A DNA stretch of 64,000 nt from Candidatus Freyarchaeum deiterrae (GCA_037305845.1 CP147778.1:1280001-1344000); one strand, 5' to 3'. Positions 2,131 through 45,002 are shown, counted from the first letter of the stretch. A program made the numbers and translations. Notes: generated by a model not told the origin, from the sequence alone.

Positions 2131-2571
2131 TTGATTTGGAGTGACAAAAACGTCTTAGTTGCCGGGGGTGCAGGATTTACCGGTTCCCACTTGGTAAAAA
2201 GATTGCTTGACCTAGGAAGTGTCATATCCGTCGCTGATGAATTCTCTAGAAGTAAAAGAAAGAACATGGAGCCTTTCCTAGACGAGATACACCTCCATAT
2301 ATTAGATTTAGCAAAGCTCGAGAACTGCTTAAAGGCTACGAAAGATATAGATTACGTTTTTCATCTAGCGGCACGCGTTAAGAAACCTAAATCTACGTGG
2401 CGGAATAATAGTCTCAGACCGCCCCACAGACAACTTCCCTCCTTAATTGCAGAAAATAAAGGAGCAAAAGTGGTCCACTCCAACGAAAAACGCTACTGCA
2501 ACGCGTACCTAACCGGATTATTTGAAACGAGAGGGAAATACATATTTATGGCCGACGCAGACGGCACATAA
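2131..2571 (+). pseudogene. Chimeric fragment: N-terminus of an NAD-dependent epimerase fused to a degraded copy of part of the upstream GT2
   Basis: VLVAGGAGFTGSHL...VFHLAARV up to ~2378; ~2383-2570 aligns by eye to ~1430-1615 (ends RGKYIFMADADGT*). Confidence 0.8.
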
Positions 2572-10518: not shown

Positions 10519-10546
10519 CTTCTTAAATTTGTTGAGGAGGTATGTA

Positions 10547-11204
10547 ATGGTTTGCAAGCAGAATTATGATTCTTTATATTATCAATATCGTGATCCCAAT
10601 AGTTTAATGTATAAAAAGTTGCGAGCTGTAGATGGATACATAAGTGCCGGGAGTTGCCTTTTAGATATTGGTATGGGCATAGGAGAATTGATTGAATTAG
10701 AAAAACAAAAATTCGAGAAGATGTATGGAATCGATGTGTGTGAAGAATCTGTTAAGATCTGTCGTAAACGATTTAAAAAAAAATGAAAAAATTTGTATTA
10801 TGCAAGCTGATATAAACGGACTGAAGCATCTATTTAAAGTCGAAAAATTCGATTATATCGCCTGTTTAGACGTATTAGAGCACATTAAGGTAGAGGATTG
10901 CAGAAAAACCTTGAACAGTATTTATAATATCCTTAAAAATAGCGGTAAACTTATCTTTACAGGCCTTTGTCTTTTTGAAAAATTTAGGATATTTTTGGGT
11001 CGATCCCCAACACATTTACATTCGCATTCGTCTTATGGCTGGAAAAAAATGATTGAAAAGGCGGGTTTTAATGTAATAAATGTTGAAACGGTTGAATTCC
11101 CACTACTCCATAGTACTTTTTTAAGGAAAAGGTTTCATCTTTTTGGTAAATGCTGCTTAATTGTAGCTGAAAAAAGAAATAATCCTTTGAGGGATTTTAG
11201 ATGA
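10547..11204 (+). pseudogene. Class I SAM-dependent methyltransferase split by a frameshift in an A9 tract (10775-10783)
   Basis: ORF 10529-10786 has LLDIGMGIG and YGIDV; ORF 10725-11204 has FDYIACLDVLEHI and ILKNSGKL; deleting one A joins them. Confidence 0.85.
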
Positions 11205-12385: not shown

Positions 12386-12675
12386 GGTAGTCCAAAATCA
12401 ATTTCTGCTGATGATACCACAAAAGAAAATTTGCCATTTCCCAAAAAAAATTTCATAGTTTTATTAATTGATATACTTGAACTCTTCCACAATCCTTCTT
12501 TTACGCTGAAAGAAATTTCATGTGTTCTAAATAGCCCCAGGCTCCTAGTAATTAGAAACCCTAATTGCGCCAAAACGCTTTCGAAAAAGTTTTTCAGAGA
12601 AAATACAATTTAGAAAACGAGAAGATTATTATATCTTGTGAGAATCACTAATAGAAAAGAAAGTTTTTTTATTAT

Positions 12676-13740
12676 CTAAAGATTATTCTTGAAGAGTTCA
12701 ATGTTTGCTTTCAACCATTCAACCATTTTAGAGACCCCTTCCTTGGGACTTATTTTTACTTCCCAACCAAGTTTTTTTCTCACCTTTCTTATATCCGAAA
12801 CATACACCTTCTGATCGCTGGGTCTCCAGTCGGAATATTCTATCTTGGTTCTTTTTCCTGTTACTTCTTCCAATAACTCCAATAATTCCAAAAGTGATAG
12901 TGTATTTTTATGTCCGCCTCCTATGTTAAATACCTCCTGCTTTAAATTACTTTTTATGAAAAGTTCGTATGCTTTTATTAAATCATCAACATAGAGGATG
13001 TCTCTTACCTGACTTCCATCTCCATAAATCGTTATAGGTTTTCCTAATAATGTCGCAATAGCAAACCAGGCAACCCACCCTTGATCTTCCACACCAAACT
13101 GTCTAGTTCCATAAATACAACTCATTCTGAAAACTCCAGTTTTCAAATCATAAATGTGACTGTAATCTTGAACGTAAATGTCTCCAGCGAGTTTAGATGA
13201 ACCGTAGGGGGTGTGCTCGCAGAGATCAATTGAAAAATCTTCTGGAACTCCCTTCTCAAATTTCTCATCTTCAAATTCGTATCTTTTACCTTTTTTACCG
13301 ACTGGAATTTTATTTACGTTGCTTCCATACACCTTATTGGTTGAGCAATAAATTAGATGTGGATCATTGGCGCTTTGTCTTGCGGCTTCTAAAACATTAA
13401 AAGTTCCAAGAGCATTTATCTCAAAATCCTGATTCGGATCCTTCAGGGAAGTTGTGACAGCAACTTGAGCAGCAGTATGAATTATAATGTCCACATCTTT
13501 ACAAACAATTTTCAAAGCTTTTAAATCTCTTATATCCTTTTTAATGAATTCCAAATTATTCAAATTTTTGAGAAAGTTCAAGTTGTAACTTTGGTTAATT
13601 TCCTTCCCTAAAATTTTCCCTCTTTCCAAATTATCGAATGCAATAACTTTACAACCCATTTTCGTGAAATGTTCACATACATGCGAACCTATGAAACCAG
13701 CGCCCCCTGTAACTAAAATATTTTTATCACGAAGTTCCAT
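12676..13740 (-). CDS. rfbE: CDP-paratose 2-epimerase (tyvelose epimerase)-like SDR
   Basis: TGGAGFIGS, AAQVAVTTS, STNKVYG, TPYGSSK, RMSCIYGTRQFGVEDQGWVAWF, WRPSDQKVYVSD. Confidence 0.8.
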   Translation of the reverse strand: MELRDKNILVTGGAGFIGSHVCEHFTKMGCKVIAFDNLERGKILGKEINQSYNLNFLKNLNNLEFIKKDIRDLKALKIVCKDVDIIIHTAAQVAVTTSLKDPNQDFEINALGTFNVLEAARQSANDPHLIYCSTNKVYGSNVNKIPVGKKGKRYEFEDEKFEKGVPEDFSIDLCEHTPYGSSKLAGDIYVQDYSHIYDLKTGVFRMSCIYGTRQFGVEDQGWVAWFAIATLLGKPITIYGDGSQVRDILYVDDLIKAYELFIKSNLKQEVFNIGGGHKNTLSLLELLELLEEVTGKRTKIEYSDWRPSDQKVYVSDIRKVRKKLGWEVKISPKEGVSKMVEWLKANIELFKNNL

Positions 13741-15394: not shown

Positions 15395-17083
15395 ATGGAA
15401 CGCAAATATCTTTTGTTATCTTTTCTGGTTCCTCTGTTTATCAGGGTTGTTCCAGAAGTCATTGCTTATCCATGGCTGATTGGCTACGATACTCTAGTCT
15501 TGTACGCGCCCTACCTATACTATTTTCAGATTTATGGCTTTTCTTTAGCTTTCTATTATACCTTTATTATGTATCACGTTACCCCTCTGCTTTATACTTT
15601 TGTTGGTGGTTTGGGTATTTTGACCGGGGCGAATCCGGTTCTGATATTGCAGGTTGTTGCTCCCATTCTCACCGGCTTTTTGGGGTTCTCGATTTATTAC
15701 TTTTTGACCGGTTATTTGGACTGGAGCGATAAGAGAAGCTTGTTCTGCGTGATTCTCAGCGTGTCATACTTTGTAGCCCTCAGGATATCCTGGGACCTGC
15801 TTAGAAACACGTTGGGACTTGCCTTCCTATTTCTCGCAGTTTCCCAGACTAAAAGTTTAGGTGAGAGAAGGAAAAGCCTTCTTTTCATAATCTTCTCCCT
15901 ACTCTGTACACTCACTCACGAAGGGGTGGCAATCATACTTTTCTTTGTAATTGCTTATCTTCTTCTTTTAGAGGTGTTTCCCTCTCTTAGCGTTTCTGGG
16001 ATTTTAAACAGTTTCAAGTCTCTGAGACGCTCCGATAAAGCCGCTGATTCCGAAACAGCGGAGACTAAGAGGGGGAAGAGTGGAAAATTAAGAACGTTAA
16101 AGCATCCCTCGGGAGACGGAGAACACAAATGGTATCAAAGGTTTTCTGGATCTGATTCTCATCCCTGGATTCTAGCCACGTACACCTTCACAGCGCTATT
16201 AATAGTGTTAATTGAGTTATATTATGCAGGACACTTCACAATTTATACTCCCAGCGACCCCTTTACCCCAAACACGTTTAGTTATTTTGTTGATTACGTC
16301 CCTCAGAATCTCTATTACAATATAAATTTTGGTTATAATGTGTATTCTTCTGTGAGTGCTTTGAGGGTTGATATCTTTTCTCTTTTTTTGGTCTGTTTTC
16401 TGCCTGTACTTCCCTTTGTGGTTTTGGGCTATTTCCGAAACCGCGTCTTGGACTTTATGGTTCTATTTCTTTTGGCGGCCTCTTTTATGCCCGTCGTGCT
16501 GCCCCACTTTGCACTTCTTCTTTGGGATCGTTGGATGCTGATGCTTACGTTTCCCTTCACCATCTACGCCTCTAACTTCCTGCTTCCCAATGAGCAAAAC
16601 TCGATTCTGATCAGGAGGCTGAAAATTTCCAGTAAAACCAGAAGGAAGGTGCTAGTCGTTATGATCCCTGTGCTGCTTTTACTATCGTTTGGGTATATGG
16701 CTTCCGGTGAGCGGGTTTTCCCCTACTTTTTGACTATAACCAATAGTTCATACATTCCACCGGGTATGCAGCGGAATACTATTCCGCTCTCCCAGAACCA
16801 GTATGCGGTGGCGGCCTGTGATTGGTTGGAGTGGAATATGCCTGCTAACTCCTGCCTCATCGTTCACCAAACCTTATATTACTGGGCCCTATCCACGCTC
16901 ACTCCTAGGCCGATGTATGAGTATGATTCTTTTGATTCGGGGTTGCAACTTGCGCTGCTCAATGCGGGTAGGTACAATAGCACCTATGTTCTGACATATT
17001 TCCCCTTTGACCAATACATTTGGAGTAACAATTTTACGCTGGTTTTCAATCTGGGGTTGGTTTATGTTTTTAAGAGTGCTTGA
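15395..17083 (+). CDS. Polytopic membrane protein, probable GT-C fold glycosyltransferase (copy 1)
   Basis: First TM followed by IGYDT acidic motif, about a dozen hydrophobic segments, C-terminal soluble domain (AACDWLEWNMPANS); glycan-locus context. Confidence 0.6.
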   Translation: MERKYLLLSFLVPLFIRVVPEVIAYPWLIGYDTLVLYAPYLYYFQIYGFSLAFYYTFIMYHVTPLLYTFVGGLGILTGANPVLILQVVAPILTGFLGFSIYYFLTGYLDWSDKRSLFCVILSVSYFVALRISWDLLRNTLGLAFLFLAVSQTKSLGERRKSLLFIIFSLLCTLTHEGVAIILFFVIAYLLLLEVFPSLSVSGILNSFKSLRRSDKAADSETAETKRGKSGKLRTLKHPSGDGEHKWYQRFSGSDSHPWILATYTFTALLIVLIELYYAGHFTIYTPSDPFTPNTFSYFVDYVPQNLYYNINFGYNVYSSVSALRVDIFSLFLVCFLPVLPFVVLGYFRNRVLDFMVLFLLAASFMPVVLPHFALLLWDRWMLMLTFPFTIYASNFLLPNEQNSILIRRLKISSKTRRKVLVVMIPVLLLLSFGYMASGERVFPYFLTITNSSYIPPGMQRNTIPLSQNQYAVAACDWLEWNMPANSCLIVHQTLYYWALSTLTPRPMYEYDSFDSGLQLALLNAGRYNSTYVLTYFPFDQYIWSNNFTLVFNLGLVYVFKSA

Positions 17084-17633: not shown

Positions 17634-19325
17634 ATGGAGCGCAAATATCTTTTGTTATCTTTTCTGGTTCCTCTACTTATCAGGGTTATTCCAGAGGTTA
17701 TTGCATATCCCTGGCCGATTGGCTACGATACAATAGGCTGGTACGCTCCTTTAATATACTATTTTCAGGTTTACGGCTTTTCTTTAGCGTTCTATTATGC
17801 CTTTAATATGTATTACTATGCCCCTCTGTTTTTAGTTTTGGCTGGCGGTTTAGGTATTTTGACCCAGCTCAATCCGGTTCTGATATTGGAGGTTGCTGCT
17901 CCCATTCTCAGCGGTATTTTGGGGTTCTCGATTTATTACTTTTTAACCGATTACTTGGACTGGAGCGGCAAGAGGGGCTTGGCTTGTGTGATTATCAGCT
18001 TATCGTATTTTGTGGCCCTCAGGATATCGTGGGACCTGCTTAGAAATACACTGGGGCTTGCCCTCATATTTCTCGCAGTTTCCCAGACTAAAAATATAGG
18101 TGAGAGAAGGAGAAGCTTTCTTTTCATACTCTTCTCCCTGCTCTGTGCACTCACTCATGAGGTGATTTCAGTTTTACTTTTCTTTGTGATTGTTTATCTT
18201 CTTCTTTTAGAGTTGTTTCCCTCTCTCAGCGTTTCTGGGCTTTTAACCCGTTTCAAGTCTCTGAGACACTCCGACAAAGCCGCTACTTATTCCGAAACAG
18301 CAGAGACTAAGAACGAGAAGAGTAAAAAATTAAAAACGTCAAAGGATTCATCGAGAGACGGAGAATATAAATGGTATCAAAGGTTTTTTGGAAATGATTT
18401 TCATCCTTGGATCATAGCCATGTACACCTTCACAGCGATATTTACAGCGATACTTATGCTATATTACGCGGGATTCTTCCGAATTAATATTCCCAATTAT
18501 CTCTTTAATCAAACAACTGTTGGTCTTTTTGATGATTACGTCCCTCCGAATCTTGGTTATAACTTGGATTTTGGTTATACCGTGTATTCTTCCGTGGGTG
18601 CTTTGAGGGTTGATATCTTTTCTCTTTTTGTGATCTGTTTCCTGCCTGTACTTCCCTTTGCGGTTTTGGGGTATTTCCGAAACCGCGCCTTGGATTTTTT
18701 GACTCTGTTTCTTTTGGCGGCTTCTTTTATGCCCGTGGTATCCCCCCACTTCGCACTGCTTTTTTGGTATCGTTGGATGCTGTTACTTACGTTTCCCTTC
18801 ACCATCTACGCCTCCAACTTCCTGCTTCCCAACGGGCAGAACTCAATTTTAATCCGGAGGCTGAAAATTCCCAGAAAAACCAGAAGGAACATTCTCGTCG
18901 TTATGATCCCTGTGCTGTTTTTAGCATCGACAGTGTACATGGCTTCCGGTGAACAGATTTATCCCTACTTTGCGTTTTTAATTAATAGTCCGTATGTTCC
19001 GGCGGGTATGCAGCGGAATACTATTCCGCTCTCCCAGAACCAGTACGCGGTGGAAGCCTGCGAGTGGCTGGCGTGGAATATGCCTGCCAACTCCTGCCTC
19101 ATCGTTCACAGAAGCCTGTATTACTATGCCCTATCCACCCTCACTCCCAGGCCGATATACCAGTATGACGCTCTTAACTTGGAGTTGCAAACTGCGATGC
19201 TCAATGCGGCGAGGTACAATAGCACCTATGTTTTGACCATTTTCCCAGTTGACTACTACATTGGGAGTTACAATTTTACACTGGTTTTCAATCTGGGGTT
19301 GGTGATGGTTTATAAAAGTGCTTGA
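17634..19325 (+). CDS. Polytopic membrane protein, probable GT-C fold glycosyltransferase (copy 2)
   Basis: Collinear tandem paralogue of 15395-17083. Confidence 0.6.
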   Translation: MERKYLLLSFLVPLLIRVIPEVIAYPWPIGYDTIGWYAPLIYYFQVYGFSLAFYYAFNMYYYAPLFLVLAGGLGILTQLNPVLILEVAAPILSGILGFSIYYFLTDYLDWSGKRGLACVIISLSYFVALRISWDLLRNTLGLALIFLAVSQTKNIGERRRSFLFILFSLLCALTHEVISVLLFFVIVYLLLLELFPSLSVSGLLTRFKSLRHSDKAATYSETAETKNEKSKKLKTSKDSSRDGEYKWYQRFFGNDFHPWIIAMYTFTAIFTAILMLYYAGFFRINIPNYLFNQTTVGLFDDYVPPNLGYNLDFGYTVYSSVGALRVDIFSLFVICFLPVLPFAVLGYFRNRALDFLTLFLLAASFMPVVSPHFALLFWYRWMLLLTFPFTIYASNFLLPNGQNSILIRRLKIPRKTRRNILVVMIPVLFLASTVYMASGEQIYPYFAFLINSPYVPAGMQRNTIPLSQNQYAVEACEWLAWNMPANSCLIVHRSLYYYALSTLTPRPIYQYDALNLELQTAMLNAARYNSTYVLTIFPVDYYIGSYNFTLVFNLGLVMVYKSA

Positions 19326-27175: not shown

Positions 27176-27730
27176 CTATGAGTTAGTTTTTATTGGTGGA
27201 ATGTATCCCAGATTCTCCAGTTTTTTGAGTATTTTGTTTACGCTCTCCTCTAAACTTTCCTGGGATGTGTCAACTGTGACCTCGGGGTTTAGTGGTTCTT
27301 CGTAGGGCTCTTGGATTCCGGTTAGGTCGTTTAGTTCTCCCTTAATCGCCTTTTGGTAGAGGCCTTTTGGGTCTCGTCTTATACATTCTTCTAGTGGGCA
27401 TTTTACCCAGACTTCAACAAAGTTTCCTATCTGGTTTCTGGCCTGTTCACGGAAGTCTCTGAAGGGTGAGATTAATCCTACTATTACAGCTACTCCGTTT
27501 CTTACCAAGAGTTTGGCTACGTAGGCTACTCTTTTGGCGTGAGTCTCGCGATCCTCTTTGGTGAACCCTAAGTCTGGGCTCAGATTTTTTCTAACCTCAT
27601 CCCCGTCTAGAACTTCTACATTTAAGCCCTTTTTCCTGAGAGCTTTTTCTAGGGCTCGTGCTATGGTGGTTTTTCCAGACGCGGGTAATCCGGTGAGCCA
27701 GACTCCGAAGCCTTCCCTCAAGTAAATCAC
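27176..27730 (-). CDS. cysC: Adenylyl-sulfate (APS) kinase
   Basis: WLTGLPASGKTT, LDGDEVR, LGFTKEDR, RDPKGLY, TGIQEPYEEP. Confidence 0.96.
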   Translation of the reverse strand: MIYLREGFGVWLTGLPASGKTTIARALEKALRKKGLNVEVLDGDEVRKNLSPDLGFTKEDRETHAKRVAYVAKLLVRNGVAVIVGLISPFRDFREQARNQIGNFVEVWVKCPLEECIRRDPKGLYQKAIKGELNDLTGIQEPYEEPLNPEVTVDTSQESLEESVNKILKKLENLGYIPPIKTNS

Positions 27731-29103
27731 CAGTTTATTGCTTTGCCTCGCATTTCTTTTGGAATTGGTACCTCTAGTATGCTTAGAACCGTGGGAGCTA
27801 CATCGAGAATATTAAGGTTTTTAATTTCTGAGCCTGATTTTTTTGTTGGATCGTAGAGTATGAATAGTCCGTACTCGGCGTGTACCGCGTCATCTGGTCC
27901 GGTGTCGTTTTCTGACAGGTATAGGGTGTCGTATCCGATTGTTCCCGCGGATCTCCAGTATAGGTCGTCGAGGTAGACTATTAAATCGGGGGAATCGCCG
28001 TTAAGCTCGTCGTAGATTTCTTCTGGTTTGTATATTTTATTGTTAAGCTTTTCCCCATTGGGTCCATGAATATTTTTTAGTTTTTCTGCCAATTCGTCTC
28101 GGATTTTTTCGTAGTCTTCTGGTGTCACGGTTCCTCGGGGTTCTCTTCCCTCGACGTTTATGAATATTCTGGCATAGTATCCGCCCCATCCCCAGGCTTT
28201 GGTTTTGCTCCAATCTATTTGGGACTCTTTTAACTCCGCACCTCTCGCTGGCTTGTCTTTTGTTTTTAGGTATCCTTCTCCTATCAGCCACTGGTTGATG
28301 CAGAAGGCTCCCTTCATTCCTTTGGCTCCGTGGTCTGAAACTACTATTACAATTGTATTTTCATCTATGATTTCCAGTAGGCTGCCTATCTCTTTGTCTA
28401 GGTATTTGTAGTATTCTTTGACTACGTTTTCGTATTTGTTATTGAGGACGTATTTTGGGTGTTCTTTGTCGAAAAACTTCCAGAAGGCGTGGTGTATTCT
28501 GTCTAAACCGATTTCTACGAAAGCGAAGAGGTTCCACTCTTTTTTTTGTATTAGATATTTTATCACTTTGAAGTGTTGTTTGGTCATCTCGTATATTTGT
28601 TCTAAGGTTTTGTCTCTTTCCTCTGTTCTGAACTCTACGTCGAATATGTACTCTTGGAACTGTTCTTCCAGTTCATTTTTTAGTTCTTTGGGATAGGTGT
28701 AATCCTTAGTGGCGTCTGGAGTTATGAAGCAGGAGATCATGCACCCATTAACCGGCTTGGGTGGGTAGCTTGGGGGTACGCCTACCGCACAGGTTTTGAG
28801 TCCCTTTTCCGATAGGACATCCCAGACAGTTTTGTATTTTACGGATTGGGAGTTTGCTATCCACGTTTCGTACGAGTAGCTCTTTTTGTGCCTGAATCCA
28901 TATAAGCCTAGTGTCCCAGGGTCTCTGCTTGTCATCATAACCATCCAGGCGGGAATAGTTATTGCAGGGATGCAGGACTTTAGTTTGCCATAAACACCGT
29001 GGTGGATCATTTTCTTAAGGTTGGGTAGCTCGTCCTGAAATTTTTCGAAAATCAGTTCTGGGGCTGCACAGTCCAATCCTATAATCAGTACTTTCTTTGA
29101 CAT
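27727..29103 (-). CDS. AlkP-superfamily / type I phosphodiesterase-nucleotide pyrophosphatase family protein
   Basis: IIGLDCA, SCIPAITIPAW (Thr nucleophile), DRIHHAFW, VSDHG, DDAVH, LDVAPT; no signal peptide. Confidence 0.9.
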   Translation of the reverse strand: MSKKVLIIGLDCAAPELIFEKFQDELPNLKKMIHHGVYGKLKSCIPAITIPAWMVMMTSRDPGTLGLYGFRHKKSYSYETWIANSQSVKYKTVWDVLSEKGLKTCAVGVPPSYPPKPVNGCMISCFITPDATKDYTYPKELKNELEEQFQEYIFDVEFRTEERDKTLEQIYEMTKQHFKVIKYLIQKKEWNLFAFVEIGLDRIHHAFWKFFDKEHPKYVLNNKYENVVKEYYKYLDKEIGSLLEIIDENTIVIVVSDHGAKGMKGAFCINQWLIGEGYLKTKDKPARGAELKESQIDWSKTKAWGWGGYYARIFINVEGREPRGTVTPEDYEKIRDELAEKLKNIHGPNGEKLNNKIYKPEEIYDELNGDSPDLIVYLDDLYWRSAGTIGYDTLYLSENDTGPDDAVHAEYGLFILYDPTKKSGSEIKNLNILDVAPTVLSILEVPIPKEMRGKAINW

Positions 29104-29105
29104 TT

Positions 29106-30155
29106 CTATGGATTCGCTCCTAACTTCGTTAATAACAGTTCTAGAAATTTTTTCGTTTCGTTCTTGGGAACTACTGCTGCAACTACCTCTTTTTTACCGC
29201 CGGCGCTGTAACCTAGACCTTTAGCGAAATTTATTATTTCGTAGGAATCAAAGAAGTTGTTCCCGGTTCTTATATATACTTGATCCCGATCCTTAAACCA
29301 GCCCTTATTCACGACTACCACTATGTTGTCTTTGTTCTTCCAAGCGAGTCTTCTTGTGATAGCCGAAGTGGTGTTGTACGGTGTATTTATTTCCCAAATT
29401 AGAATTTTACCTTCTGTGCGGGTTGGTGGTTTACTGGTTTGTTTCTCTACGTCATCTCTTAGTTTTTCAAGATTTTTGTTCCATTTCGGGTGTTCTAAGA
29501 TTGCCTCGGGATTGTTTTTTAATAACAGGAAAGGTGCTTCGAGAACACCGTTTCTGTCTCCCATTTTGTAATTCGAGTCTATTAGTTCAGTCATTCTGAG
29601 GAGATCGTCAAAAGAAATTTCTAGCTTTTCTATGAAGTCTTCTATCACGTTGTATACGTCTTTTTTGTTCTTGAGTTTGGTTTCGTGATCGCCTACCGCT
29701 CCTAGAATGGCGGTAATATTTACGGGGTTGCCTAGATAATCGTTTACAAACCAAGATGCCGAGGGGTACTTTTCATCATTTATTCCCTCAATTAAAGGGT
29801 TGAAGTGATGAATCTCTTCTATTTTTTCTTGGATGTGGTGGTCGAAGTAAAATACCTCTGCTTTTGAAGTATTTTTTAGTTTTAAGATGTTGTTCATTGG
29901 GAAGTTTATGTCAGCTATTATTATGAACTCGTAGTTTTGTGAACTTACTCTTTTTATTTCACGGTCTTCAAGGTAGTAGTTTCCAATGGTTGGTGTATAA
30001 TTTTTAATAATTAATTCTTTCTTCATTTTTCTGAGGTACTCTAGAAATAGAGCCGCTGAGGATATACCGTCCGTATCCCAGTGGTGAATTATTAATCCTT
30101 TTTTATAGTTTTTCACACGCTCAATCTCTAGCTCACCACGTTCGGAGGGACACAT
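29106..30155 (-). CDS. DHH-family phosphoesterase (candidate PAP phosphatase)
   Basis: HHWDTDG, IAD, FDHH, GAVGD, C-terminal AGGKKEV (DHHA1-like). Confidence 0.8.
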   Translation of the reverse strand: MCPSERGELEIERVKNYKKGLIIHHWDTDGISSAALFLEYLRKMKKELIIKNYTPTIGNYYLEDREIKRVSSQNYEFIIIADINFPMNNILKLKNTSKAEVFYFDHHIQEKIEEIHHFNPLIEGINDEKYPSASWFVNDYLGNPVNITAILGAVGDHETKLKNKKDVYNVIEDFIEKLEISFDDLLRMTELIDSNYKMGDRNGVLEAPFLLLKNNPEAILEHPKWNKNLEKLRDDVEKQTSKPPTRTEGKILIWEINTPYNTTSAITRRLAWKNKDNIVVVVNKGWFKDRDQVYIRTGNNFFDSYEIINFAKGLGYSAGGKKEVVAAVVPKNETKKFLELLLTKLGANP

Positions 30156-30162
30156 CTAGTCT

Positions 30163-31302
30163 TCACTCCACGAAGGGGTTTCCCGATTTCAGAATTATGT
30201 CAGTTACCTCGGGGCGCATAATTTCCTCCGGAGGACGCTGACCTTTAACGAGCATTTCGCGTATCTTTGTTCCGCTAAATTTTATGCATTGTTCCCCCTC
30301 GTGGGGGCAGATTTTCTCATTAACCATGCCGCCGCACTTTTTGCAGTAGTAGAACTCCTTGAAGAACAGGGGTACAATTCCTAGGTCGGGAAATTCTTCG
30401 AATATGTCTTGTGCGGCGTAGGGTGGATAGAAGTCGCCTACTCCTGCGTGGTCCCTTCCCACTATGAAGTGGGTGCATCCGAAGTTTTTTCTTACGATAG
30501 CGTGGAATATTGCTTCTCGGGGACCTGCGTATCTCATTTCGAAGGGTAGGATGCTTATTACCGCTCGGTCTTTTAGGTAATAGTTTTTTATTAGGGCATT
30601 GTAGGCTTCCAGTATGACTTCGTCTCTGAAGTCACCCTTTTTCTTTTTTCCGATGACGGGGTTGATGAATACTCCGTCTACGAAAGTTAGAGCTACTTTT
30701 TGTACATATTCGTGTCCCAGATGGGGAGCATTTCTTGTTTGAAACCCCACTATGGTTCTCCAGCCTTTCTCCTTGAATAGTATCCTAGTTTCTACTGGTC
30801 TTAGATTGTATTTTGAGAAAGGGTTTTTCATCTCATTGATTAGGTCAATTTTTCCGCCTAACAATAGTTCTTCCATATCTTTTAGTTTTGCAACCCCGGG
30901 ATGTTTGGCGTCTAGGGTTCCGTAAACTTTCTGGGCGAATTCCCTTTTGTTATATTTGTACACTTCGTCTACACGCATTAGTGCTAGAGGCTTGTTTCCG
31001 TATGAGAGGGTGATGGTGTCTCCGTTTCTTGTTTCAAAATTATTCGGAGCGTCTAGGATTATGGGTAGTGTCCAGGGTAAGTCATTGGCTAATCTCTTCT
31101 CATTTAGAACGTTGGAATAGTCTTCTTCCAAGAGAAAGCCTTCCAAGGGGCTGAATACCCCCTTAGCGATGTTTTCAACGTCTTTGGCTAAACCCTCGTT
31201 GATGTTTAGGATTGGAAGTTCGCTGGCTAGTTCTTGGAATTTTTCTTTTTCATGTTCTCCTATTTCCCTGTTTACGAGTTTTCCACCATGAGGTTTCGGC
31301 AT
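30163..31302 (-). CDS. sat: Sulfate adenylyltransferase (ATP sulfurylase)
   Basis: PHGGKLVNR, FSPLEGF, FQTRNAPHLGHE, MRYAGPREA, IVGRDHAGVG, SGTKIR. Confidence 0.97.
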   Translation of the reverse strand: MPKPHGGKLVNREIGEHEKEKFQELASELPILNINEGLAKDVENIAKGVFSPLEGFLLEEDYSNVLNEKRLANDLPWTLPIILDAPNNFETRNGDTITLSYGNKPLALMRVDEVYKYNKREFAQKVYGTLDAKHPGVAKLKDMEELLLGGKIDLINEMKNPFSKYNLRPVETRILFKEKGWRTIVGFQTRNAPHLGHEYVQKVALTFVDGVFINPVIGKKKKGDFRDEVILEAYNALIKNYYLKDRAVISILPFEMRYAGPREAIFHAIVRKNFGCTHFIVGRDHAGVGDFYPPYAAQDIFEEFPDLGIVPLFFKEFYYCKKCGGMVNEKICPHEGEQCIKFSGTKIREMLVKGQRPPEEIMRPEVTDIILKSGNPFVE

Positions 31303-31331
31303 TTATAAACCCCTTTAATAGTATATGCGGT

Positions 31332-31556
31332 TTAGCCGAGATATCCTAGGGCTCTTAGTCTTTCCTTTACTTTCTCCTCGTCCTCTTTGCTGAATGGCTC
31401 CCTTTCTTCCTCCCCTTCTGCTACAATCTCATGAAGCACATACGTTACATAGCTTGAAACCGAGGTAAAGTCGGTGTTTTTAATTCTCTCTTGTATCTTC
31501 TTAAACAGCGGAGTGGGTATAGAAACAGTTGTGAATTTCTTATCCTTTTCAGACAT
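31332..31556 (-). CDS. Ribbon-helix-helix (CopG-like) protein with C-terminal ...EEKVKERLRALGYLG tail
   Basis: TTVSIPTPLFKKIQERI..FTSVSSYVTYVL RHH pattern; first gene of the sat operon. Confidence 0.85.
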   Translation of the reverse strand: MSEKDKKFTTVSIPTPLFKKIQERIKNTDFTSVSSYVTYVLHEIVAEGEEEREPFSKEDEEKVKERLRALGYLG

Positions 31557-31571
31557 TTCAAGCGCACCATT

Positions 31572-31591
31572 TAATTAAATATATTTAATTA
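31572..31591. promoter_or_regulatory. Perfect 20-bp palindrome upstream of the RHH-sat operon, candidate operator
   Basis: TAATTAAATATATTTAATTA equals its reverse complement, 16-35 bp upstream of the start codon. Confidence 0.45.
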
Positions 31592-31702
31592 TAATCCCTA
31601 GCATATTAAAGATTTTCATGTCTATAAACACCTAAAAAAGATGCCTGTGGAAGAGTTATAAAAGCCCATTTAAAGAGAATTTAGAGAGGTTACTAGTATT
31701 GT

Positions 31703-33280
31703 TTATATCTTTTTCAGTTCCTTTAATTTTTTGATTTTTCCCCTTAAGAGGATTTTTTCTGTTTCCATGTCTTGGCTTATAATCTCCTTTTTGCTTAGCT
31801 CTGAACTCTCCTGGAATATTTCGGTTAGGACTCTGCCATCCATATCACGTGGGATCGGTACTTGAAACATGTGGAGTACTGTGGGAGCGAGGTCGTAGAT
31901 TTTCGCGTTTTCTATCCTGTATCCCTCTTTGATGTCTGGACCATAAGCTATGAATACGCCTTGAAGTCTGTGATACGCTGACCAAACCTTATTTTCAAGG
32001 TCCCAGCTACTTCCCTGTAGAATGTCGAATATTCTGTAGCCTTCGTTCGGTATTACTACAAGGTCTGGTGCTAGCTCCAGATGTTCACCCTGATATATAT
32101 CCTCCTTCCTCTTGACGTCGATTACCAGATTTTCCCCAGTTTTCGGATTTTTTATCCCGTTTATTTCTTTTATTAGTTTGGTCCTTAGCGTTTCGTAACC
32201 GTTTCGGTCATGATTCAGATTTAAGAATATACCGCATTCTCCTACATTTATGGCCTTTGTTGTATTCCAGTCTGTTTGAGCTATCAAATCAGAAGCTTCT
32301 GCTAAATTAATCTTCAATTGCAGTCTGATGAGGTTTTTTCGGGGTATTAGTCGAACGATTTTATCTAAACCTAGTTTACGGATTACTTGTGATGTTTTCT
32401 TGTTGTATAACCGGAGGCTGGTTAATAGAATGTTTAAAGTGGATAGGTTTAGGTATCCTTTCTCCAGGAGCCACCGGTTCAGGTAGAATGTCGCTTTTAC
32501 ACTAGTAAAACCATGGTCGGACATGATTAAAATGTTAGTATCCTTTCCAAGCTGGTTGAGTAGCTTTCCGATTTCTGCGTCGATTACTTTCCAAATTTTT
32601 TCAATGACTCCACCGAATCTTTCATCTCGGTCCTCCATTTCTTTCCAGAAAAAGTGTTGTATGGCATCCGTGTAAAAGAGTGTTATGTGAGTAAAATCAG
32701 GCGAGTAACTCTGAATTAGATATTTTGTAGCCGCAAACCTTTTTTTAATAAGGTCTTCTACCTCTGAAACGAGTTTATTTTTTCTAGGTAATTGGCGCCT
32801 GGGATCAAGGGTGTATTCGCTAGGGTTTATCTTGTAGTCATACTTTTCGACCAGAGTCTTTTTCAAATCCTTTGGAAAGGTGTAATCCGCGGAATCAGAC
32901 ATGGGAAATCCGGAAACTATAAAGCCTTTAATTCTTCTTGGGGGGCATGAAAGGGGAAGGTTTATGACCCCAGAAGTTAAATCCTGCTCCCCTAAGTAGT
33001 CCCAAATTTCCTTACTTTGAAAAGGATCAGAATACATTACCTTTAATTCGGGATTTTTGACATCGAATCCGCACCAACTGTACAGGCCCAACTTCCCGGG
33101 ATTCTTACCAGTAGAATAAGATTTCCAAGCTGGCGCAGTTGAAAAGGGATAGGTACTCTGCAAATTCCCCCAAACCCCTTTTTCCATTAGCCTTCTAAAA
33201 GTTGGTAACTTTCCTTGCTCAACCAAGGGTAAAAGTATGTTCCAAGTCGCACCATCCAAACCTATTACTAAGACTTTCAA
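31703..33280 (-). CDS. AlkP-superfamily (NPP-like) protein, long form, copy 1
   Basis: VIGLDGATW, STYPFSTAPAW, TGKNPGK, DAIQHFFW, MSDHGF, IYDLAPTVL, DMDGRVL; TTG start. Confidence 0.9.
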   Translation of the reverse strand: MKVLVIGLDGATWNILLPLVEQGKLPTFRRLMEKGVWGNLQSTYPFSTAPAWKSYSTGKNPGKLGLYSWCGFDVKNPELKVMYSDPFQSKEIWDYLGEQDLTSGVINLPLSCPPRRIKGFIVSGFPMSDSADYTFPKDLKKTLVEKYDYKINPSEYTLDPRRQLPRKNKLVSEVEDLIKKRFAATKYLIQSYSPDFTHITLFYTDAIQHFFWKEMEDRDERFGGVIEKIWKVIDAEIGKLLNQLGKDTNILIMSDHGFTSVKATFYLNRWLLEKGYLNLSTLNILLTSLRLYNKKTSQVIRKLGLDKIVRLIPRKNLIRLQLKINLAEASDLIAQTDWNTTKAINVGECGIFLNLNHDRNGYETLRTKLIKEINGIKNPKTGENLVIDVKRKEDIYQGEHLELAPDLVVIPNEGYRIFDILQGSSWDLENKVWSAYHRLQGVFIAYGPDIKEGYRIENAKIYDLAPTVLHMFQVPIPRDMDGRVLTEIFQESSELSKKEIISQDMETEKILLRGKIKKLKELKKI

Positions 33281-33692
33281 GTTTAGGCCTCTGTTAGTTT
33301 AAGGGCAACTATGTAATGTAGTTAACCCTATTAAAATGTTTTCTCATCGGTCTATAACAGTCAAAATTCCTTTAAAATTAAACTATATGTGCAAATGAAA
33401 ACAACATCGCATATACGATAAACTACCTAAGTATAATTAATATCTTTTACTACCTAATTTCTTTTAGAAAATTTCTAGTATTGACAACAATTTAGGAATC
33501 AGTGTACCTTTCCATGTTTGGCATCAATAAAAAAAGTTTATGATTAATCTGTCAGTAATGCTCAATGCTGCTCGCTTCAAAAATGAATGAGTATTGAAAA
33601 TTTTGAAGCGTATAATCACAAATAAAAAAAATAAATTTGGAAAAATTTTGAAACAATTCATTTATGGAGTTTGAAAGGAGAATTGTCTATCT

Positions 33693-35279
33693 TTATATCT
33701 TTTTTGTTTCCTTTAATTTTTCTATTTTTTTCTTTATAAGAACTTTTTCTGTATCCACATCTCTGTACACAGTCTCTTTTTTAGCCAACTCGGAGTTTTC
33801 CCGGAATATTTCGGCCAAGACTCTGCCATCCATATCTCTTGGAATCGGTACTTGGAACATATGAAGTACTGTGGGAGCGAGGTCGTAGATTTTCGCGTTT
33901 TCTATCTTGTTCCCCTTTCTAATATCTGGACCGTATGCTATGAATACGCCTTGAAGTTTATGAAATGCTGACCAAACTTCATTTTCATAATCCCAGTTAT
34001 TTCTGAGTATACTGTCGTATATTCTGTAGCCTTCGTTCGGTATTACTACAAGGTCTGGTGCTAGCTCCAGATACTCTCCGTGATATATTTCCTCCTTCCT
34101 TTTGACATCGGTTAATAGATTTTCCCCTGTTTGTGGGTTCTTTATCCTTTTCATTTCTGTTATTAATTGTGTCCTTAGCGTTTCGTAATCATTTCGGTCA
34201 TGATTCGGATTTAGGAAAACGCCACAATCGCCCACATTGATGGCCTTAGTTGTACTCCAGTCTGCTTGAATTATCAACCTAGGACTTGGGATTTCTGATG
34301 GGTTTAGTCTCTGTTGAAGTTCAATTAATGTTGACTTGGGTATAAGCCGCTCAACAATTTTATCAAAACCTAGTTTACGGATTACTTGTGATGTTTTCTT
34401 GTTGTATAACCGGAGGCTGGTTAATAGGATGTTTAAAGTGGATAGGTTTAGGTATCCTTTCTCCAGGAGCCACCGGTTCAGGGAGAATGTTGCTTTTAAG
34501 CCAGTGAAACCATGGTCGGACATGACTAAAATGTTAGTATCCTTTCCAAGCTGGTTGAGTAGCTTTCCGATTTCTGCGTCGATTATTTTCCATATTTTTT
34601 CAATGACTCCACCGAATCTTTCATCTCTGTCCTCCATTTCTTTCCAGAAAAAGTGTTGTATGGCATCAGTGTAAAAGAGTGTTGTGTGAGTAAAATCAGG
34701 CGAGTAATTCTGAATTAGATATTTTGTCGCTTCAAATTCATTTTTAATAAGTTCTTCTATCTCTGAAATGAGTTTATTTTTTCTGGGTAATTGGCGCTTT
34801 GGATCAAGGGTGTATTCGCTAGGGTTTATCTTGTAGTCATACTTTTCGACTAAGGTTTTTTTCAAATCCTTTGGAAAGGTGTAATCTGCGGAATCAGACA
34901 TGGGGAACCCGGAAACTATAAAGCCTTTAATTCTTCTTGGGGGGCATGATAGGGGAAGGTTTATGACCCCGGAAGTTAGACCTTGTTCCCCTAAGTAATC
35001 CCAAATTTCCTTACTTTGAAAAGGATCAGAATACATTACTCTTAATTCAAGATTTTTGGCGTTGAATTCGCACCAACTGTACAGGCCCAACTTCCCGGGA
35101 TTCTTACCCGTAGAATAAGATTTCCAAGCTGGCGCAGTTGAAGAGGGATAGGTACTCTGCAAATTCCCCCAAACACCTTTTTCCATAAGCTTTCCAAGAG
35201 TTGGTAACTTTCCTTGCTCAACCAAGGGTAAAAGTATATTCCATGTTGCGCCGTCTAAACCAATTACCAAGACCTTCAA
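33693..35279 (-). CDS. AlkP-superfamily (NPP-like) protein, long form, copy 2
   Basis: Tandem paralogue of 31703-33280 with the same motifs. Confidence 0.9.
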   Translation of the reverse strand: MKVLVIGLDGATWNILLPLVEQGKLPTLGKLMEKGVWGNLQSTYPSSTAPAWKSYSTGKNPGKLGLYSWCEFNAKNLELRVMYSDPFQSKEIWDYLGEQGLTSGVINLPLSCPPRRIKGFIVSGFPMSDSADYTFPKDLKKTLVEKYDYKINPSEYTLDPKRQLPRKNKLISEIEELIKNEFEATKYLIQNYSPDFTHTTLFYTDAIQHFFWKEMEDRDERFGGVIEKIWKIIDAEIGKLLNQLGKDTNILVMSDHGFTGLKATFSLNRWLLEKGYLNLSTLNILLTSLRLYNKKTSQVIRKLGFDKIVERLIPKSTLIELQQRLNPSEIPSPRLIIQADWSTTKAINVGDCGVFLNPNHDRNDYETLRTQLITEMKRIKNPQTGENLLTDVKRKEEIYHGEYLELAPDLVVIPNEGYRIYDSILRNNWDYENEVWSAFHKLQGVFIAYGPDIRKGNKIENAKIYDLAPTVLHMFQVPIPRDMDGRVLAEIFRENSELAKKETVYRDVDTEKVLIKKKIEKLKETKKI

Positions 35280-43352: not shown

Positions 43353-45002
43353 ATGGCGCACGGTGTAACTAAATTGTCCAAAGAGCGGGCTAGAGTTTTT
43401 TCAGGAACTCTATATAATTATCTTACTCTACTACTTTTGGTTTTACTAACTGCTATCAATACTATTGTTATCGCAAATAATATTGGTAACGGTCTTTATG
43501 GAAGTTTTAGTATTGGGACAACTTTGCTTGATTTACTTACGGGTATTAGTTATGTTGGTATGAGCGCTTCGTTGATACGTTTTGTTCCCGATTTTCTTGT
43601 TAGGAAAAAATTTGGCTATGTTAAGACCGCTGTTAGTACTGCAAGTATTGTAATTCTTTTGGCCACTGGGGTACTGTCGGTTATTAGTTTTTTTGCAGCA
43701 CCATATATTGCTAACAATGTTTTTCACAATTATTGGTTAACGCCCGTTCTTCAATTGTTGGTTTTAACTTTTCCTTTGTTAAGTGTTAACATTATTTTTG
43801 GTGCTATTCTGGCTGCTTTTCAGCGATTCGGTATATCTATGGTTATGAGAGTCGTAGATATTTCAGTTTATTTTCTTTTTGCTTTTATTTTTCTTGGACT
43901 TGGGCTTAGTATTGTAGGCGTGATATACGCGTTTGCTATTGGATATGCTTTTTCTGGATTGTTTGGTTTTGCTTTTTCTTTGAAGGAAATAAGGAAGAGG
44001 GCTAAAATAGATAAGGGATTTAAGATTTTCGATTCCCACCTTTTTAGGGAGATGTTTAGTTTTGGTAAGTGGGATTATGGTATGTCTTTTATTAATCTTG
44101 GGTTCACGCGTTTTAATGAGCTTCTTATAGGTGTATTTCTTACAATAGCAACTTTAGGTGTATATGCAATTGGTCAAACATTCGCTTCAATCCTAGGCTA
44201 TATAGGATCTGCTCTTGCGACTACTTTGAATCCCTATCTTTCGGAGTTAACAGCTATTAATATGAAAAAAAGGGTTGTAAATTTGATGAAGACGTCGACA
44301 GGATACTCGTTAATTTTGTCATTATTATTTTCAGCTCCATTAATAGTGTTTTCGTATCAAATATTTGATGCATTCTTTTCCCAGGATTTCCTTTTGGCTG
44401 TGGACCCAGCGAAAATTCTTATTATTGGTTTTGTTGTGTCTAATATTTCTGGACCAGTGGGATCGTATTTCTTTGCTAGAAAGAAACTTTGGGTAAACTT
44501 TTCAATTCTCCTTGTTTCTTTGCTCACGGGAGTTGGGTTGAGCGTTTTACTTATTCCAATTTTTAGTATGTATGGATTAAATCAAGCTATGGGAATGATT
44601 GGAGCTGCGATTGGTCTTGTTTATAGTGGGATGCAAGCTATGGGAATGATTGGAGCTGCGATTGGTCTTGTTTATAGTGGGATGCAAGCTATGGGAATGA
44701 TTGGAGCTGCGATTGGTCTTGTTTTTGGTTGGATAGTTAATGCAGTATTATACGCATTTTTCACCAAGAGGTACTTTAAGATTAATATTTTGGAAAAAAA
44801 ATCTGCGATTTCGGCGGCTTTATTCGTGGGAGGACTTTTGGTTCTTGGTCTTCTCACTAATATTTATTTTGGATTATCTGTTTTGGGTTTAGTTATATTT
44901 GAAGTTGCTGTAGTGTTTGTATATAGGCGTGAGTTGCGGAGCATTGCCAAAACTGCTGAGGCCTATTTGTTACCCTCGCAGAAAAAAGTAACCAGTAAAT
45001 AG
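43353..45002 (+). CDS. Oligosaccharide flippase (MOP/Wzx family) with an internal tandem repeat
   Basis: Multiple TM segments, IGNGLYGSF, LIRFVP, LGVYAIG, LLIPIF..GMIGAAIG. Confidence 0.85.
   Translation: MAHGVTKLSKERARVFSGTLYNYLTLLLLVLLTAINTIVIANNIGNGLYGSFSIGTTLLDLLTGISYVGMSASLIRFVPDFLVRKKFGYVKTAVSTASIVILLATGVLSVISFFAAPYIANNVFHNYWLTPVLQLLVLTFPLLSVNIIFGAILAAFQRFGISMVMRVVDISVYFLFAFIFLGLGLSIVGVIYAFAIGYAFSGLFGFAFSLKEIRKRAKIDKGFKIFDSHLFREMFSFGKWDYGMSFINLGFTRFNELLIGVFLTIATLGVYAIGQTFASILGYIGSALATTLNPYLSELTAINMKKRVVNLMKTSTGYSLILSLLFSAPLIVFSYQIFDAFFSQDFLLAVDPAKILIIGFVVSNISGPVGSYFFARKKLWVNFSILLVSLLTGVGLSVLLIPIFSMYGLNQAMGMIGAAIGLVYSGMQAMGMIGAAIGLVYSGMQAMGMIGAAIGLVFGWIVNAVLYAFFTKRYFKINILEKKSAISAALFVGGLLVLGLLTNIYFGLSVLGLVIFEVAVVFVYRRELRSIAKTAEAYLLPSQKKVTSK
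44583..44724 (+). repeat. Perfect in-frame 51-bp tandem repeat, 2.8 copies
   Basis: caagctatgggaatgattggagctgcgattggtcttgtttatagtgggatg at 44583 and 44634; first 40 bp again at 44685. Confidence 0.95.

Follow-up and report, generated by a model that had tools for sequence, protein, structure and literature searches.

In haloarchaea, the genes of two AlkP-fold proteins, Agl30 (VNG1056C) and Agl31 (VNG1057C), lie in a glycosylation cluster, and genetics showed that the proteins are required for the sulfation of a dolichol-linked glycan (PMC11980604); a step of this kind in haloarchaeal N-glycan sulfation also requires Agl7 (HVO_2046) (PMC11980604, PMC3892788). The mode of action of Agl30 and Agl31 was left open by their authors (PMC11980604). 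In Thermococcales, a cassette (pych_17520-17570; TON_1704-1707) encodes a CopG protein, Sat, a DHH-family pApase, a type I phosphodiesterase and APS kinase (PMC8268124, PMC4463584), and TON_1705 has been reported to be a slow pyrophosphatase with a kcat of 2.1/s and a Km of 18.8 uM (as cited in PMC9653972). For archaea that have Sat, CysC and a PAP phosphatase and are without sulfate assimilation, a "non-canonical sulfo-transferase" has been invoked (PMC10322725, PMC8268124). Both the cassette and the AlkP-fold glycan sulfotransferases Agl30/31 are already known; the mechanism proposed below was not described in the literature on COG3379, on AlkP proteins with PAPS or on a tyrosine sulfo-carrier, in a search that covered a minority of the subscription papers.

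The window, that is, the whole 64-kb stretch of DNA that was analysed, is from Candidatus Freyarchaeum deiterrae (GCA_037305845.1 CP147778.1:1280001-1344000), and the locus occupies positions 27176-35279 of it (Table 1). All seven ORFs were located on the minus strand at the positions given by the initial annotation, and the gene identities were obtained with Pfam and NCBIfam profiles (APS kinase, ATP sulfurylase, DHH and three times PF01663). The tight operon RHH-sat-DHH-AlkP-cysC described by the initial annotation was confirmed, with intergenic gaps of 29, 7, 2 and -4 nt, as were the two further AlkP genes on the same strand; these lie at distances of 146 and 412 nt and may therefore be separate transcription units. 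AlkP2 and AlkP3, which share 84% amino acid and 85% DNA identity, are, as judged from their sequences, a recent tandem duplication. Among 58 GTDB loci with enough flanking sequence, RHH was found in 53, and in 50 the distance from AlkP1 to sat or cysC was no more than 3 kb, which indicates that the arrangement is not due to chance. No Rfam matches were obtained across the window, and a sigma-70 promoter and terminator scan of it, with a consensus type unsuited to archaea, gave hits at chance level.

Table 1. Features of the locus, in positions of the 64-kb window; roles of the AlkP and RHH proteins are proposals.
Feature	Position	Strand	Evidence
cysC, APS kinase (giving PAPS)	27176..27730	-	PF01583 E 2e-59; TIGR00455 above cut-off
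AlkP1, NPP-fold enzyme without a tail; PAPS-dependent loading of the carrier tyrosine proposed	27727..29103	-	PF01663
Thr49 codon, AlkP1 nucleophile	28957..28959	-	aligned to the Xac NPP nucleophile
DHH-family PAP phosphatase	29106..30155	-	best PDB match 8A8K, E 3.4e-39, residues 20-340
sat, ATP sulfurylase (giving APS)	30163..31302	-	PF01747 E 1e-94; TIGR00339 above cut-off
RHH (CopG-like), 74 aa, acidic linker and C-terminal LxxLGY helix; proposed sulfo-carrier	31332..31556	-	
Tyr72 codon (RHH), proposed sulfate-carrying residue	31341..31343	-	
AlkP2, NPP-fold enzyme of the variable clade; acceptor-specific transferase (proposed); basic C-terminal helix without Tyr	31703..33280	-	PF01663
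AlkP3, tandem paralogue of AlkP2	33693..35279	-	PF01663; 84% identical to AlkP2

The genome is closed and 100% complete, and all of it was covered by the profile searches. No P-loop sulfotransferase profile (PF13469, PF00685, PF03567) scored above cut-off in the whole genome, the Arylsulfotran_2 profile (PF14269) for ASST was not found there, and nothing above cut-off was obtained genome-wide for sulfite reductase (PF01077) or AprA. Among the seven locus proteins there was likewise no match to the Sulfotransfer profiles or to a 5'-PSB loop. The initial statement that the window holds neither reductase nor sulfotransferase can thus be widened to the genome for sulfotransferase, sulfite reductase and AprA, with the qualification that a single PF01507 domain is present outside the locus, in a 646-aa protein. 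The recycling of PAP by the DHH protein, also claimed initially, is in line with full-length homology to MtPAPP that includes the HHWDxDG and DHH motifs (E 3.4e-39 to 8A8K), and by this strong homology the protein would destroy PAP.

The three AlkP proteins matched PF01663 with 176, 145 and 142 bits (cut-off 23), and PF00884 was below cut-off. As had been noted before, the nucleophile is Thr in all three (ITIPAW, STAPAW), and the Thr-x-Pro-x-Trp sequence does not fit the formylglycine motif C/S-x-P/A-x-R; signal or membrane segments are absent (highest 19-residue hydropathy at most 1.47), and the glycosylation cluster around these enzymes was recovered as well. The best structural match of AlkP1 was Xac NPP (Z 30.9, rmsd 3.2 A, 344 aligned residues), and a PDB sequence search with AlkP1 gave no close solved relative, the profile reaching Xac NPP only, and weakly. 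The residues D11, T49, D201, H205, D257, H258 and H408 are invariant in AlkP1 and correspond to the Thr nucleophile and the three Asp and three His metal ligands. In NPPs an Asn 21 residues past the nucleophile binds a phosphodiester oxygen; this Asn is absent here, and its place is taken by an invariant Phe70 in AlkP1 and by Trp69 in AlkP2/3.

AlkP1 and AlkP2/3 belong to two clades with different properties. The AlkP1 clade has conserved active-site arginines (R71, R159, R202, R312 and R384) and tracks sat/cysC, not glycan loci; AlkP1 is often found outside glycan loci with tailed enzymes elsewhere in the genome (e.g. G125), stays with RHH even in loci without adjacent sat or cysC, and is naturally fused to CysC in some genomes. 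A Thermococcaceae locus (L078) has the order sat-DHH-AlkP1-cysC with an AlkP1 that is 59% identical. AlkP2/3 keep the metal ligands and Thr48, whereas the AlkP1 arginines are not conserved in their hypervariable clade, which is found in glycan loci and has no conserved basic pocket for PAPS. Close homologues of AlkP3 occur in glycosyltransferase operons, one of them adjoining aglB, and the family is very large, with 17,679 clusters at 50% identity matching AlkP3 at E <=0.001 and 3,861 at 1e-30. The mean identity was 62% within the AlkP1 clade and 34% within the variable clade, as expected of a universal donor-side enzyme and of acceptor-specific enzymes, respectively.

A gene survey covered 121 Asgard genomes, which are kin and not independent samples: AlkP1 was found in 35, a small sulfotransferase in 8, and both together in none. 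In two genomes (G009 and G020) a 195-aa P-loop sulfotransferase, above cut-off for both PF00685 and PF13469, is the X in RHH-sat-DHH-X-cysC. Its best PDB matches were SULT1 and TPST entries, although these are weak and biased by PDB content. All 35 AlkP1 genomes carry sat and 34 carry RHH, the exception lying at a contig edge; PF13469 is absent from 17 of the 35. Furthermore, none of the 56 sat-positive Asgard genomes is without one of three protein types: AlkP1 is present in 35, the small sulfotransferase in 7 and other PF13469 proteins in 14. Among 151 genomes of Halobacteriota, RHH was present in 16/16 AlkP1 genomes and the small-sulfotransferase profile had no match. In bacteria, 64 single-chain AlkP-TPR-small sulfotransferase fusions were found, 53 of which have a strict LxxLGY directly past the AlkP core (shuffled rate 2.3%), while the other 11 have the same arm and a Tyr. 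A minimal trio in G067 consists of a tail-less sulfatase-like enzyme, the small sulfotransferase and RHH-LGY, adjoining a probable sugar cytidylyltransferase.

The LxxLGY tail is absent from AlkP1-3 and present on the neighbouring RHH protein, which bears the Atlas label CopG-like and probably is an autoregulator as well. Its L67, L70, G71 and Y72 are invariant among 35 homologues, and the tail position is Tyr in 95/95 intact RHH tails, a count that leaves out a weak RHH match in G100 ending before the tail. The tail was found in 0/120 AlkP1-type versus 52/150 variable-type proteins, never with Phe at the Tyr position, and Agl30 and Agl31 end in the same tail, as read off the primers published in PMC11980604. 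A model of one tailed variable enzyme shows an ordered helix for the tail (pLDDT ~83) past a flexible linker (~53). CysC has a look-alike helix cap, which was set aside as a carrier because its Tyr varies (59/76). Some CysD proteins, like CysC, also end in LGY-like caps, which is consistent with a docking motif.

A complex of AlkP1 with RHH residues 42-74 was predicted with a score of 0.88 in three runs, compared with 0.03 for the best of three controls; at least 75% of the contacts agreed between runs and the partner pLDDT was at least 67. The score mark was reached by 58/80 solved versus 2/110 mismatched pairs, counts that are rough because our own alignments were used. In the predicted complex Tyr72 contacts T49, I48, G69, F70, R71, G308 and Y309, with an expected error of 1.5 A for the Tyr72-Thr49 contact, and 24/35 interface residues are invariant as compared with 74/458 overall. 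The prediction suggests that the RHH tail binds AlkP1 with Tyr72 at the nucleophile Thr49, and Phe70 would then cradle Tyr72.

We propose the following sulfate relay. Sat and CysC would make PAPS and the DHH protein would remove PAP, both by strong homology. AlkP1 would bind PAPS in its Arg-lined two-metal site and move the sulfuryl group onto RHH Tyr72, probably via a Thr49-sulfo intermediate and with ping-pong kinetics. In the last and weakest step, the aryl sulfate on Tyr72 would be the donor for the variable AlkP2/3, which would sulfate a hydroxyl group of a sugar in a lipid-linked or envelope glycan assembled by the surrounding locus. In other genomes the tail could act in cis on variable enzymes as a swinging arm, and the small P-loop sulfotransferase could replace AlkP1 as loader; the RHH domain may couple the state of the carrier to transcription of the cassette. 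That some non-canonical sulfotransfer is at work appears quite probable to us, and for the full relay from PAPS through AlkP1, carrier tyrosine and AlkP2/3 to sugar we see an even chance. The initial annotation had all AlkPs moving sulfate from PAPS onto sugars. Non-canonical sulfation of envelope glycans is supported by the sulfotransferase in the AlkP1 slot and by Agl30/31, but the same PAPS-to-sugar job for all three enzymes is not, given the conserved arginines of AlkP1 that AlkP2/3 lack, its tracking of sat/cysC and its predicted binding of the RHH tail. The earlier reading had treated RHH as a bystander and did not include the published cassette or the TON_1705 report.

Several observations count against the relay. 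The tail-binding residues of AlkP1 are poorly conserved across the variable clade, and in AlkP2/3 the groove might be occupied by the basic C-terminal helix of the enzyme itself. In haloarchaea and some Methanosarcinia-like genomes, RHH-LGY and tailed AlkPs occur in the absence of both AlkP1 and the small sulfotransferase. A conserved tail-less 450-aa paralogue in haloarchaea is a candidate loader only, to which the gene neighbours lent no support. The missing loader and the CysC and CysD caps would fit a direct transfer, in which each AlkP uses PAPS itself to sulfate sugars and the LGY tail serves for docking or gating by completing or blocking the active site, and so would the finding that Agl30 or Agl31 alone gives glycan sulfation in Haloferax volcanii (PMC11980604). 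We consider this unlikely, though a serious contender: the variable clade lacks a conserved basic PAPS pocket, a PAPS-using P-loop sulfotransferase fused to arm-bearing variable AlkPs would be redundant, AlkP1 is often outside glycan loci with the tailed enzymes elsewhere in the genome, and true tails never exchange Tyr for Phe. Also against the relay, AlkP1 retains a complete two-metal site of the NPP type. Such sites natively catalyse attack at phosphorus, so that a Thr-AMP from APS or PAPS is chemically plausible, and TON_1705, which corresponds to AlkP1 in gene order, has been reported to be a pyrophosphatase (as cited in PMC9653972).

This activity, the interpretation of the cassette in the literature (PMC8268124, PMC4463584, PMC9653972), the complete NPP metal site, the NPP as nearest fold and the lack of a family I PPase in the source genome would agree with a helper role of AlkP1. 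As a pyrophosphatase or a hydrolase of APS/PAPS it would pull or trim the synthesis of PAPS, the RHH tail would inhibit or sense the enzyme, and the sulfation would be performed by an unrecognised enzyme. However, the reported kcat of TON_1705 is ~10,000-fold below that of Ton1914 from the same organism (PMC9653972), a family II PPase-like ORF is present in the source genome (G000 363270-364196), and 10/35 AlkP1 Asgard genomes carry family I PPase as well. The replacement of AlkP1 is, moreover, a sulfotransferase and not a PPase, AlkP1 and RHH are kept together without adjacent sat/cysC, and the diester-binding Asn has given way to Phe70; a helper role is accordingly rather improbable. It is more doubtful still that AlkP1 sulfates or AMPylates Tyr72 merely as a signal tuning the RHH repressor to APS/PAPS levels, with AlkP2/3 as unrelated phospho-transferases or hydrolases on glycans. 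RHH is CopG-like and first in the operon, its tail is predicted in the active site, and NPP chemistry favours nucleotidyl transfer, but hundreds of AlkP enzymes of glycan loci carry the identical tail, which is also present in fusions without a DNA-binding domain and on Agl30/31, sulfotransferases proven by genetics. Finally, the cassette might feed reductive sulfate assimilation via the 646-aa PF01507 protein, since a PAPS-reductase-like domain is present and reduction of APS or PAPS has been reported for related proteins of M. jannaschii (PMC10322725). We regard this as very improbable given the lack of sulfite reductase and AprA, the transfer candidates in all sat-positive Asgards and the distribution of PF01507, which was matched in 85/121 Asgard genomes, mostly in the ~650-aa type and many of them without sat, and missed at the threshold used in many with the cassette; as this distribution does not follow sat, the protein was rejected as the PAPS sink.

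The proposed relay makes two matters testable, namely where Agl30/31, as AlkP-fold proteins that lack a PAPS-binding loop, get their sulfate from, and what the non-canonical sulfo-transferase invoked for archaea is. It names the residues Thr49 and Tyr72, only small soluble proteins are needed, and orthologues exist in culturable thermophiles. If true, it would be a new fold for enzymatic sulfation, part of the very large family above would be reannotated, and sulfated surface glycans would be predicted in many archaea including Asgards. More tentatively, at somewhat less than an even chance, there may be a widespread protein-carrier sulfation pathway in which the LxxLGY Tyr is loaded by AlkP1 or the small P-loop sulfotransferase and unloaded by enzymes, thousands in number and Agl30/31 among them, that now bear phosphodiesterase or sulfatase annotations; many tailed "sulfatase-like" genes would then be sulfotransferases. 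Such a tyrosine-carrier route common to many microbes is apparently undescribed so far.

The Thermococcales cassette has the same five genes in the same order, and neither a sulfotransferase nor a sulfite reductase was found there; the publications interpret it as a pathway of assimilatory sulfate reduction in which the AlkP is a pyrophosphatase. They do not mention the tail or that it binds AlkP1, nor do they describe a sulfotransferase in the place of AlkP1 or a connection with variable AlkPs. Agl30/31 share with the locus AlkPs the AlkP core, the lack of an export signal and the glycosylation cluster. They are, however, annotated as sulfatase-like as opposed to the NPP-like clade here (a contrast drawn from annotation), and carry the tail on the enzyme itself, whereas here a separate small protein bears it and the locus encodes AlkP1 as a dedicated partner. 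The NPPs (Xac NPP, ENPP1-7) share the fold (Z ~30), the Thr nucleophile and the three Asp and three His metal ligands, but are only 12-17% identical to the AlkPs of the locus, which are cytosolic and have Phe/Trp for the NPP Asn, and they differ from AlkP1, whose Arg-lined groove is predicted to accept a protein tyrosine. Caprazamycin is sulfated in two steps, in which a PAPS-dependent loader (Cpz8) forms an aryl sulfate on a phenolic shuttle and the ASST Cpz4 transfers it independently of PAPS to the final acceptor. The relay logic would be the same, but caprazamycin sulfation uses a small-molecule shuttle and an ASST as second enzyme, whereas here the shuttle would be a protein tyrosine and both enzymes would have the AlkP fold. 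As with TPST and SULT1, the proposed product is a tyrosine O-sulfate after an acidic stretch, although AlkP1 has another fold without a P-loop and the sulfotyrosine would be a transient carrier and not the end product, analogous in this respect to the acyl and D-alanyl carrier proteins.

The initial annotation had described a five-gene operon preceded by two further AlkP genes, and all seven open reading frames were recovered in place, encoding an APS kinase (CysC), a DHH protein, an ATP sulfurylase (Sat), a 74-aa CopG-like protein (RHH) and three PF01663 proteins (AlkP1, AlkP2 and AlkP3). The operon and its AlkP genes are real: the five core genes, RHH-sat-DHH-AlkP1-cysC on the minus strand, are separated by 29, 7, 2 and -4 nt, and AlkP2 and AlkP3, a recent tandem duplication, have spacings of 146 and 412 nt. 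They are surrounded by genes for glycosyltransferases, nucleotide-sugar enzymes, a flippase and methyltransferases. The genome is a single closed contig of 3.58 Mb (completeness 100%), and the top matches of AlkP1 were in Freyarchaeota and Jordarchaeia. Further features are listed in the table.

Coordinates of additional features in the genome (G000, contig C1), in the window and in other loci
Location	Feature	Possible reading
G000:C1:530123-530587, outside the window	Second RHH gene with LxxLGY tail (85% identical, tail intact), then a truncated remnant of sat; the DNA matches the window cassette at 76% identity across 412 bp	sat decayed, carrier retained
G000:C1:1578262-1580202	646-aa protein with PAPS_reduct domain, probable PUA and Fe-S parts; common in Asgards regardless of sat
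G000:C1:1852052-1852594	Another protein resembling APS kinase (32% identity with CysC); probable methionine-salvage genes lie nearby
G000:C1:2152452-2153855	Cytosolic sulfatase-like protein (PF00884) lacking both the LGY tail and a standard formylglycine motif; gene next to that of a probable GH38 mannosidase	Additional client or catabolic enzyme
Window 2131-2571	Apparently broken sugar gene, epimerase fragment running into GT2 fragment
Window 3968-4816	Apparently broken GDP-fucose-synthase-like ORF, start missing
Window 15395-17083 and 17634-19325	Paralogous multi-pass membrane proteins, ~562 aa each, without Pfam match	Candidate GT-C-type glycosyltransferases, from gene context
Window 44583-44724	Perfect 51-bp tandem repeat (2.8 copies) within flippase gene, encoding repeated 17-aa hydrophobic segment	Recent expansion or assembly artefact
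L113-L115, ~9800-13700	AlkP-LGY-TPR-sulfotransferase fusion flanked by conserved small upstream ORF and ~290-aa protein with type IX secretion tail	Acceptor may be a secreted protein

No sulfotransferase or reductase had been noted in the window, and this holds genome-wide except for one PF01507 domain elsewhere: profile searches of the whole genome found no Sulfotransfer_1, _2 or _3, Arylsulfotran_2, sulfite reductase domain or AprA, and two home-built sulfotransferase profiles gave no match. The single PF01507 domain lies in the 646-aa protein; such matches, most of them long like this one, are present independently of sat in 85 of 121 Asgard genomes, and the protein is more likely an RNA-modifying or other PP-loop enzyme than a PAPS reductase. 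The proposed role of the DHH protein in removing PAP was supported by homology over its full length to a solved archaeal PAP phosphatase. Strong homology argues that the cassette would synthesize PAPS and remove PAP; with such a phosphatase present, PAP is expected to arise in the cell, and this implies sulfuryl transfer or reduction.

The three AlkP proteins had been treated as equivalent enzymes, which was not borne out, as they fall into two clades. Members of the AlkP1 clade (~460 aa) are 55-90% identical across archaea and bacteria (mean 62%), and some orthologues are naturally fused to CysC. Of 58 GTDB loci with enough flank, 53 carry RHH within 3 kb of AlkP1 and 50 carry sat or cysC in that range. 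The surroundings in many Aminicenantes are housekeeping genes, with just an epimerase adjoining the cassette. The variable clade of AlkP2 and AlkP3 (~530 aa) has a mean identity of 34%, and the three homologues with usable flanks adjoin glycosyltransferases, one bordering aglB. The nearest folds to the AlkP1 model (pLDDT 94.9) are nucleotide pyrophosphatases/phosphodiesterases (NPPs); both clades retain the NPP nucleophile and six metal ligands, and in both the diester-binding Asn is replaced by an aromatic residue. Conserved active-site arginines (R71, R159, R202, R312 and R384) are found only in the AlkP1 clade, a set of the kind that a PAPS-binding enzyme would need.

The C-terminus of RHH consists of an acidic linker and a helix ending in LxxLGY, invariant across 35 homologues. 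It is also the C-terminus of 52 of 150 variable-clade proteins, as compared with 0 of 120 AlkP1-clade proteins; as read from published cloning primers, Agl30 and Agl31 end in it too. The tail Tyr is present in 95/95 intact RHH tails, a count partly biased by the Tyr in the RHH profile itself, and no AlkP tail has Phe in its place. In contrast, 15 of 76 CysC proteins carry Phe or Leu at the corresponding position of a look-alike helix cap, which points to selection on the Tyr hydroxyl. In an AlphaFold model of a tailed variable enzyme the tail helix was ordered and preceded by a low-confidence linker, which would fit docking in cis.

AlkP1 and RHH residues 42-74 gave a complex score of 0.88 in three runs sharing at least 75% of contacts (partner pLDDT at least 67; best control 0.03). 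Of the solved pairs, 58 of 80 attained this score mark, and of the mismatched pairs 2 of 110 did; both figures are approximate since our own alignments were used. Tyr72 was predicted to contact the nucleophile Thr49 as well as I48, G69, F70, R71, G308 and Y309. The predicted interface has 24 of 35 residues invariant as compared with 74 of 458 overall, which is partly explained by proximity to the active site. The prediction is unlikely to reproduce a complex already known, because PDB sequence and profile searches found no solved relative of either partner. The tail is thus predicted to bind AlkP1 with Tyr72 at the nucleophile, a placement supported by conservation.

AlkP1 was found in 35 of 121 Asgard genomes, together with sat in all 35 and RHH in 34; in the second phylum examined (Halobacteriota, 151 genomes) RHH accompanied AlkP1 in 16/16. 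In two Asgard genomes, G009 and G020, the place of AlkP1 in the cassette is taken by a 195-aa P-loop sulfotransferase (X in RHH-sat-DHH-X-cysC), and elsewhere in its genome G009 encodes a variable AlkP with the tail. The small sulfotransferase was found in 8 Asgard genomes, none with AlkP1. An intact RHH tail is encoded in 43 Asgard genomes, of which 34 carry AlkP1 and six the small sulfotransferase. In one of the remaining three a different sulfotransferase-like gene adjoins RHH, and in the other two the cassette is interrupted by a contig end. Zero overlap would have a naive probability of 1e-5, but the six genomes represent only about three lineages. Each of the 56 sat-positive Asgard genomes encodes AlkP1, the small sulfotransferase or another PF13469 protein; PF13469 is entirely missing from 17 of the AlkP1-bearing genomes. 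A minimal trio in G067 (tail-less sulfatase-like enzyme, small sulfotransferase and tailed RHH) adjoins a probable sugar cytidylyltransferase. From the displacement we infer that AlkP1 is functionally a sulfotransferase.

It is possible that AlkP1 is instead a pyrophosphatase, as was proposed when the identical five-gene cassette of Thermococcales and other archaea was interpreted as sulfate assimilation; the authors found neither a sulfotransferase nor a sulfite reductase (PMC8268124). Against this, the present genome has a family II pyrophosphatase-like gene, and what takes the place of AlkP1 is a sulfotransferase, not a pyrophosphatase. For TON_1705, the counterpart of AlkP1 by gene order, a kcat of 2.1/s has been reported, as compared with ~30,000/s for another pyrophosphatase of the same organism (PMC9653972). 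Alternatively, the AlkP enzymes might use PAPS directly, which is hard to reconcile with natural fusions. Of 72 longer homologues of the small sulfotransferase, 64 are AlkP-TPR-sulfotransferase fusions, bacterial where named, whose AlkP domain retains a Ser nucleophile and all metal ligands. A strict LxxLGY lies ~48 residues past the end of the AlkP core in 53 of them (shuffled rate 2.3%), and an equivalent arm with the Tyr present is found in the remaining 11. The union in a single chain of an enzyme that uses PAPS, an arm bearing the tyrosine and an AlkP catalytic domain is what a relay of loader, carrier and transferase predicts.

In such a tyrosine relay AlkP1 would, judging from its fold, form a Thr49-sulfo intermediate, and a sulfotyrosine on the carrier would then be used by AlkP2/3 to sulfate a sugar, as suggested by the fusions, gene context and Agl30/31. 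This handover is the weakest link, because the binding groove is poorly conserved in the variable clade and AlkP2/3 end in a Tyr-less basic helix. Some form of non-canonical sulfotransfer by the cassette is likely, and the full relay has about an even chance of being correct.

No loader was recognised with AlkP1 and small-sulfotransferase profiles in haloarchaea and Methanosarcinia-like genomes among the 151 of the second phylum, where the tailed RHH adjoins an aglJ-like glycosyltransferase or cysDN. Four Methanosarcinia-like loci (L164-L167) have two tandem tailed RHH genes, a CysD ending in an LGY helix and CysN, and two of them a short 260-aa PF01663 protein; this content is possibly a third loader type. 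In five haloarchaeal loci (L163, L170-L172 and L176) the tailed RHH has a conserved position by an aglJ-like GT2 on the margin of a glycosylation cluster, and three of these loci also have tailed AlkP or sulfatase-like genes close by. A conserved tail-less ~450-aa paralogue, present in most haloarchaea outside glycan loci (L136-L145), is a candidate for the missing loader.

The cassette is thus already known, and a non-canonical sulfotransferase has been called for in methanogens (PMC10322725). The tyrosine-relay mechanism appears to be undescribed in the searchable literature. Sulfation of glycans by AlkP-fold enzymes has precedent: after an earlier genetic case of N-glycan sulfation, Agl7 (PMC3892788), the AlkP-superfamily proteins Agl30 and Agl31 were identified as N-glycan sulfotransferases by knockout and heterologous expression (PMC11980604).
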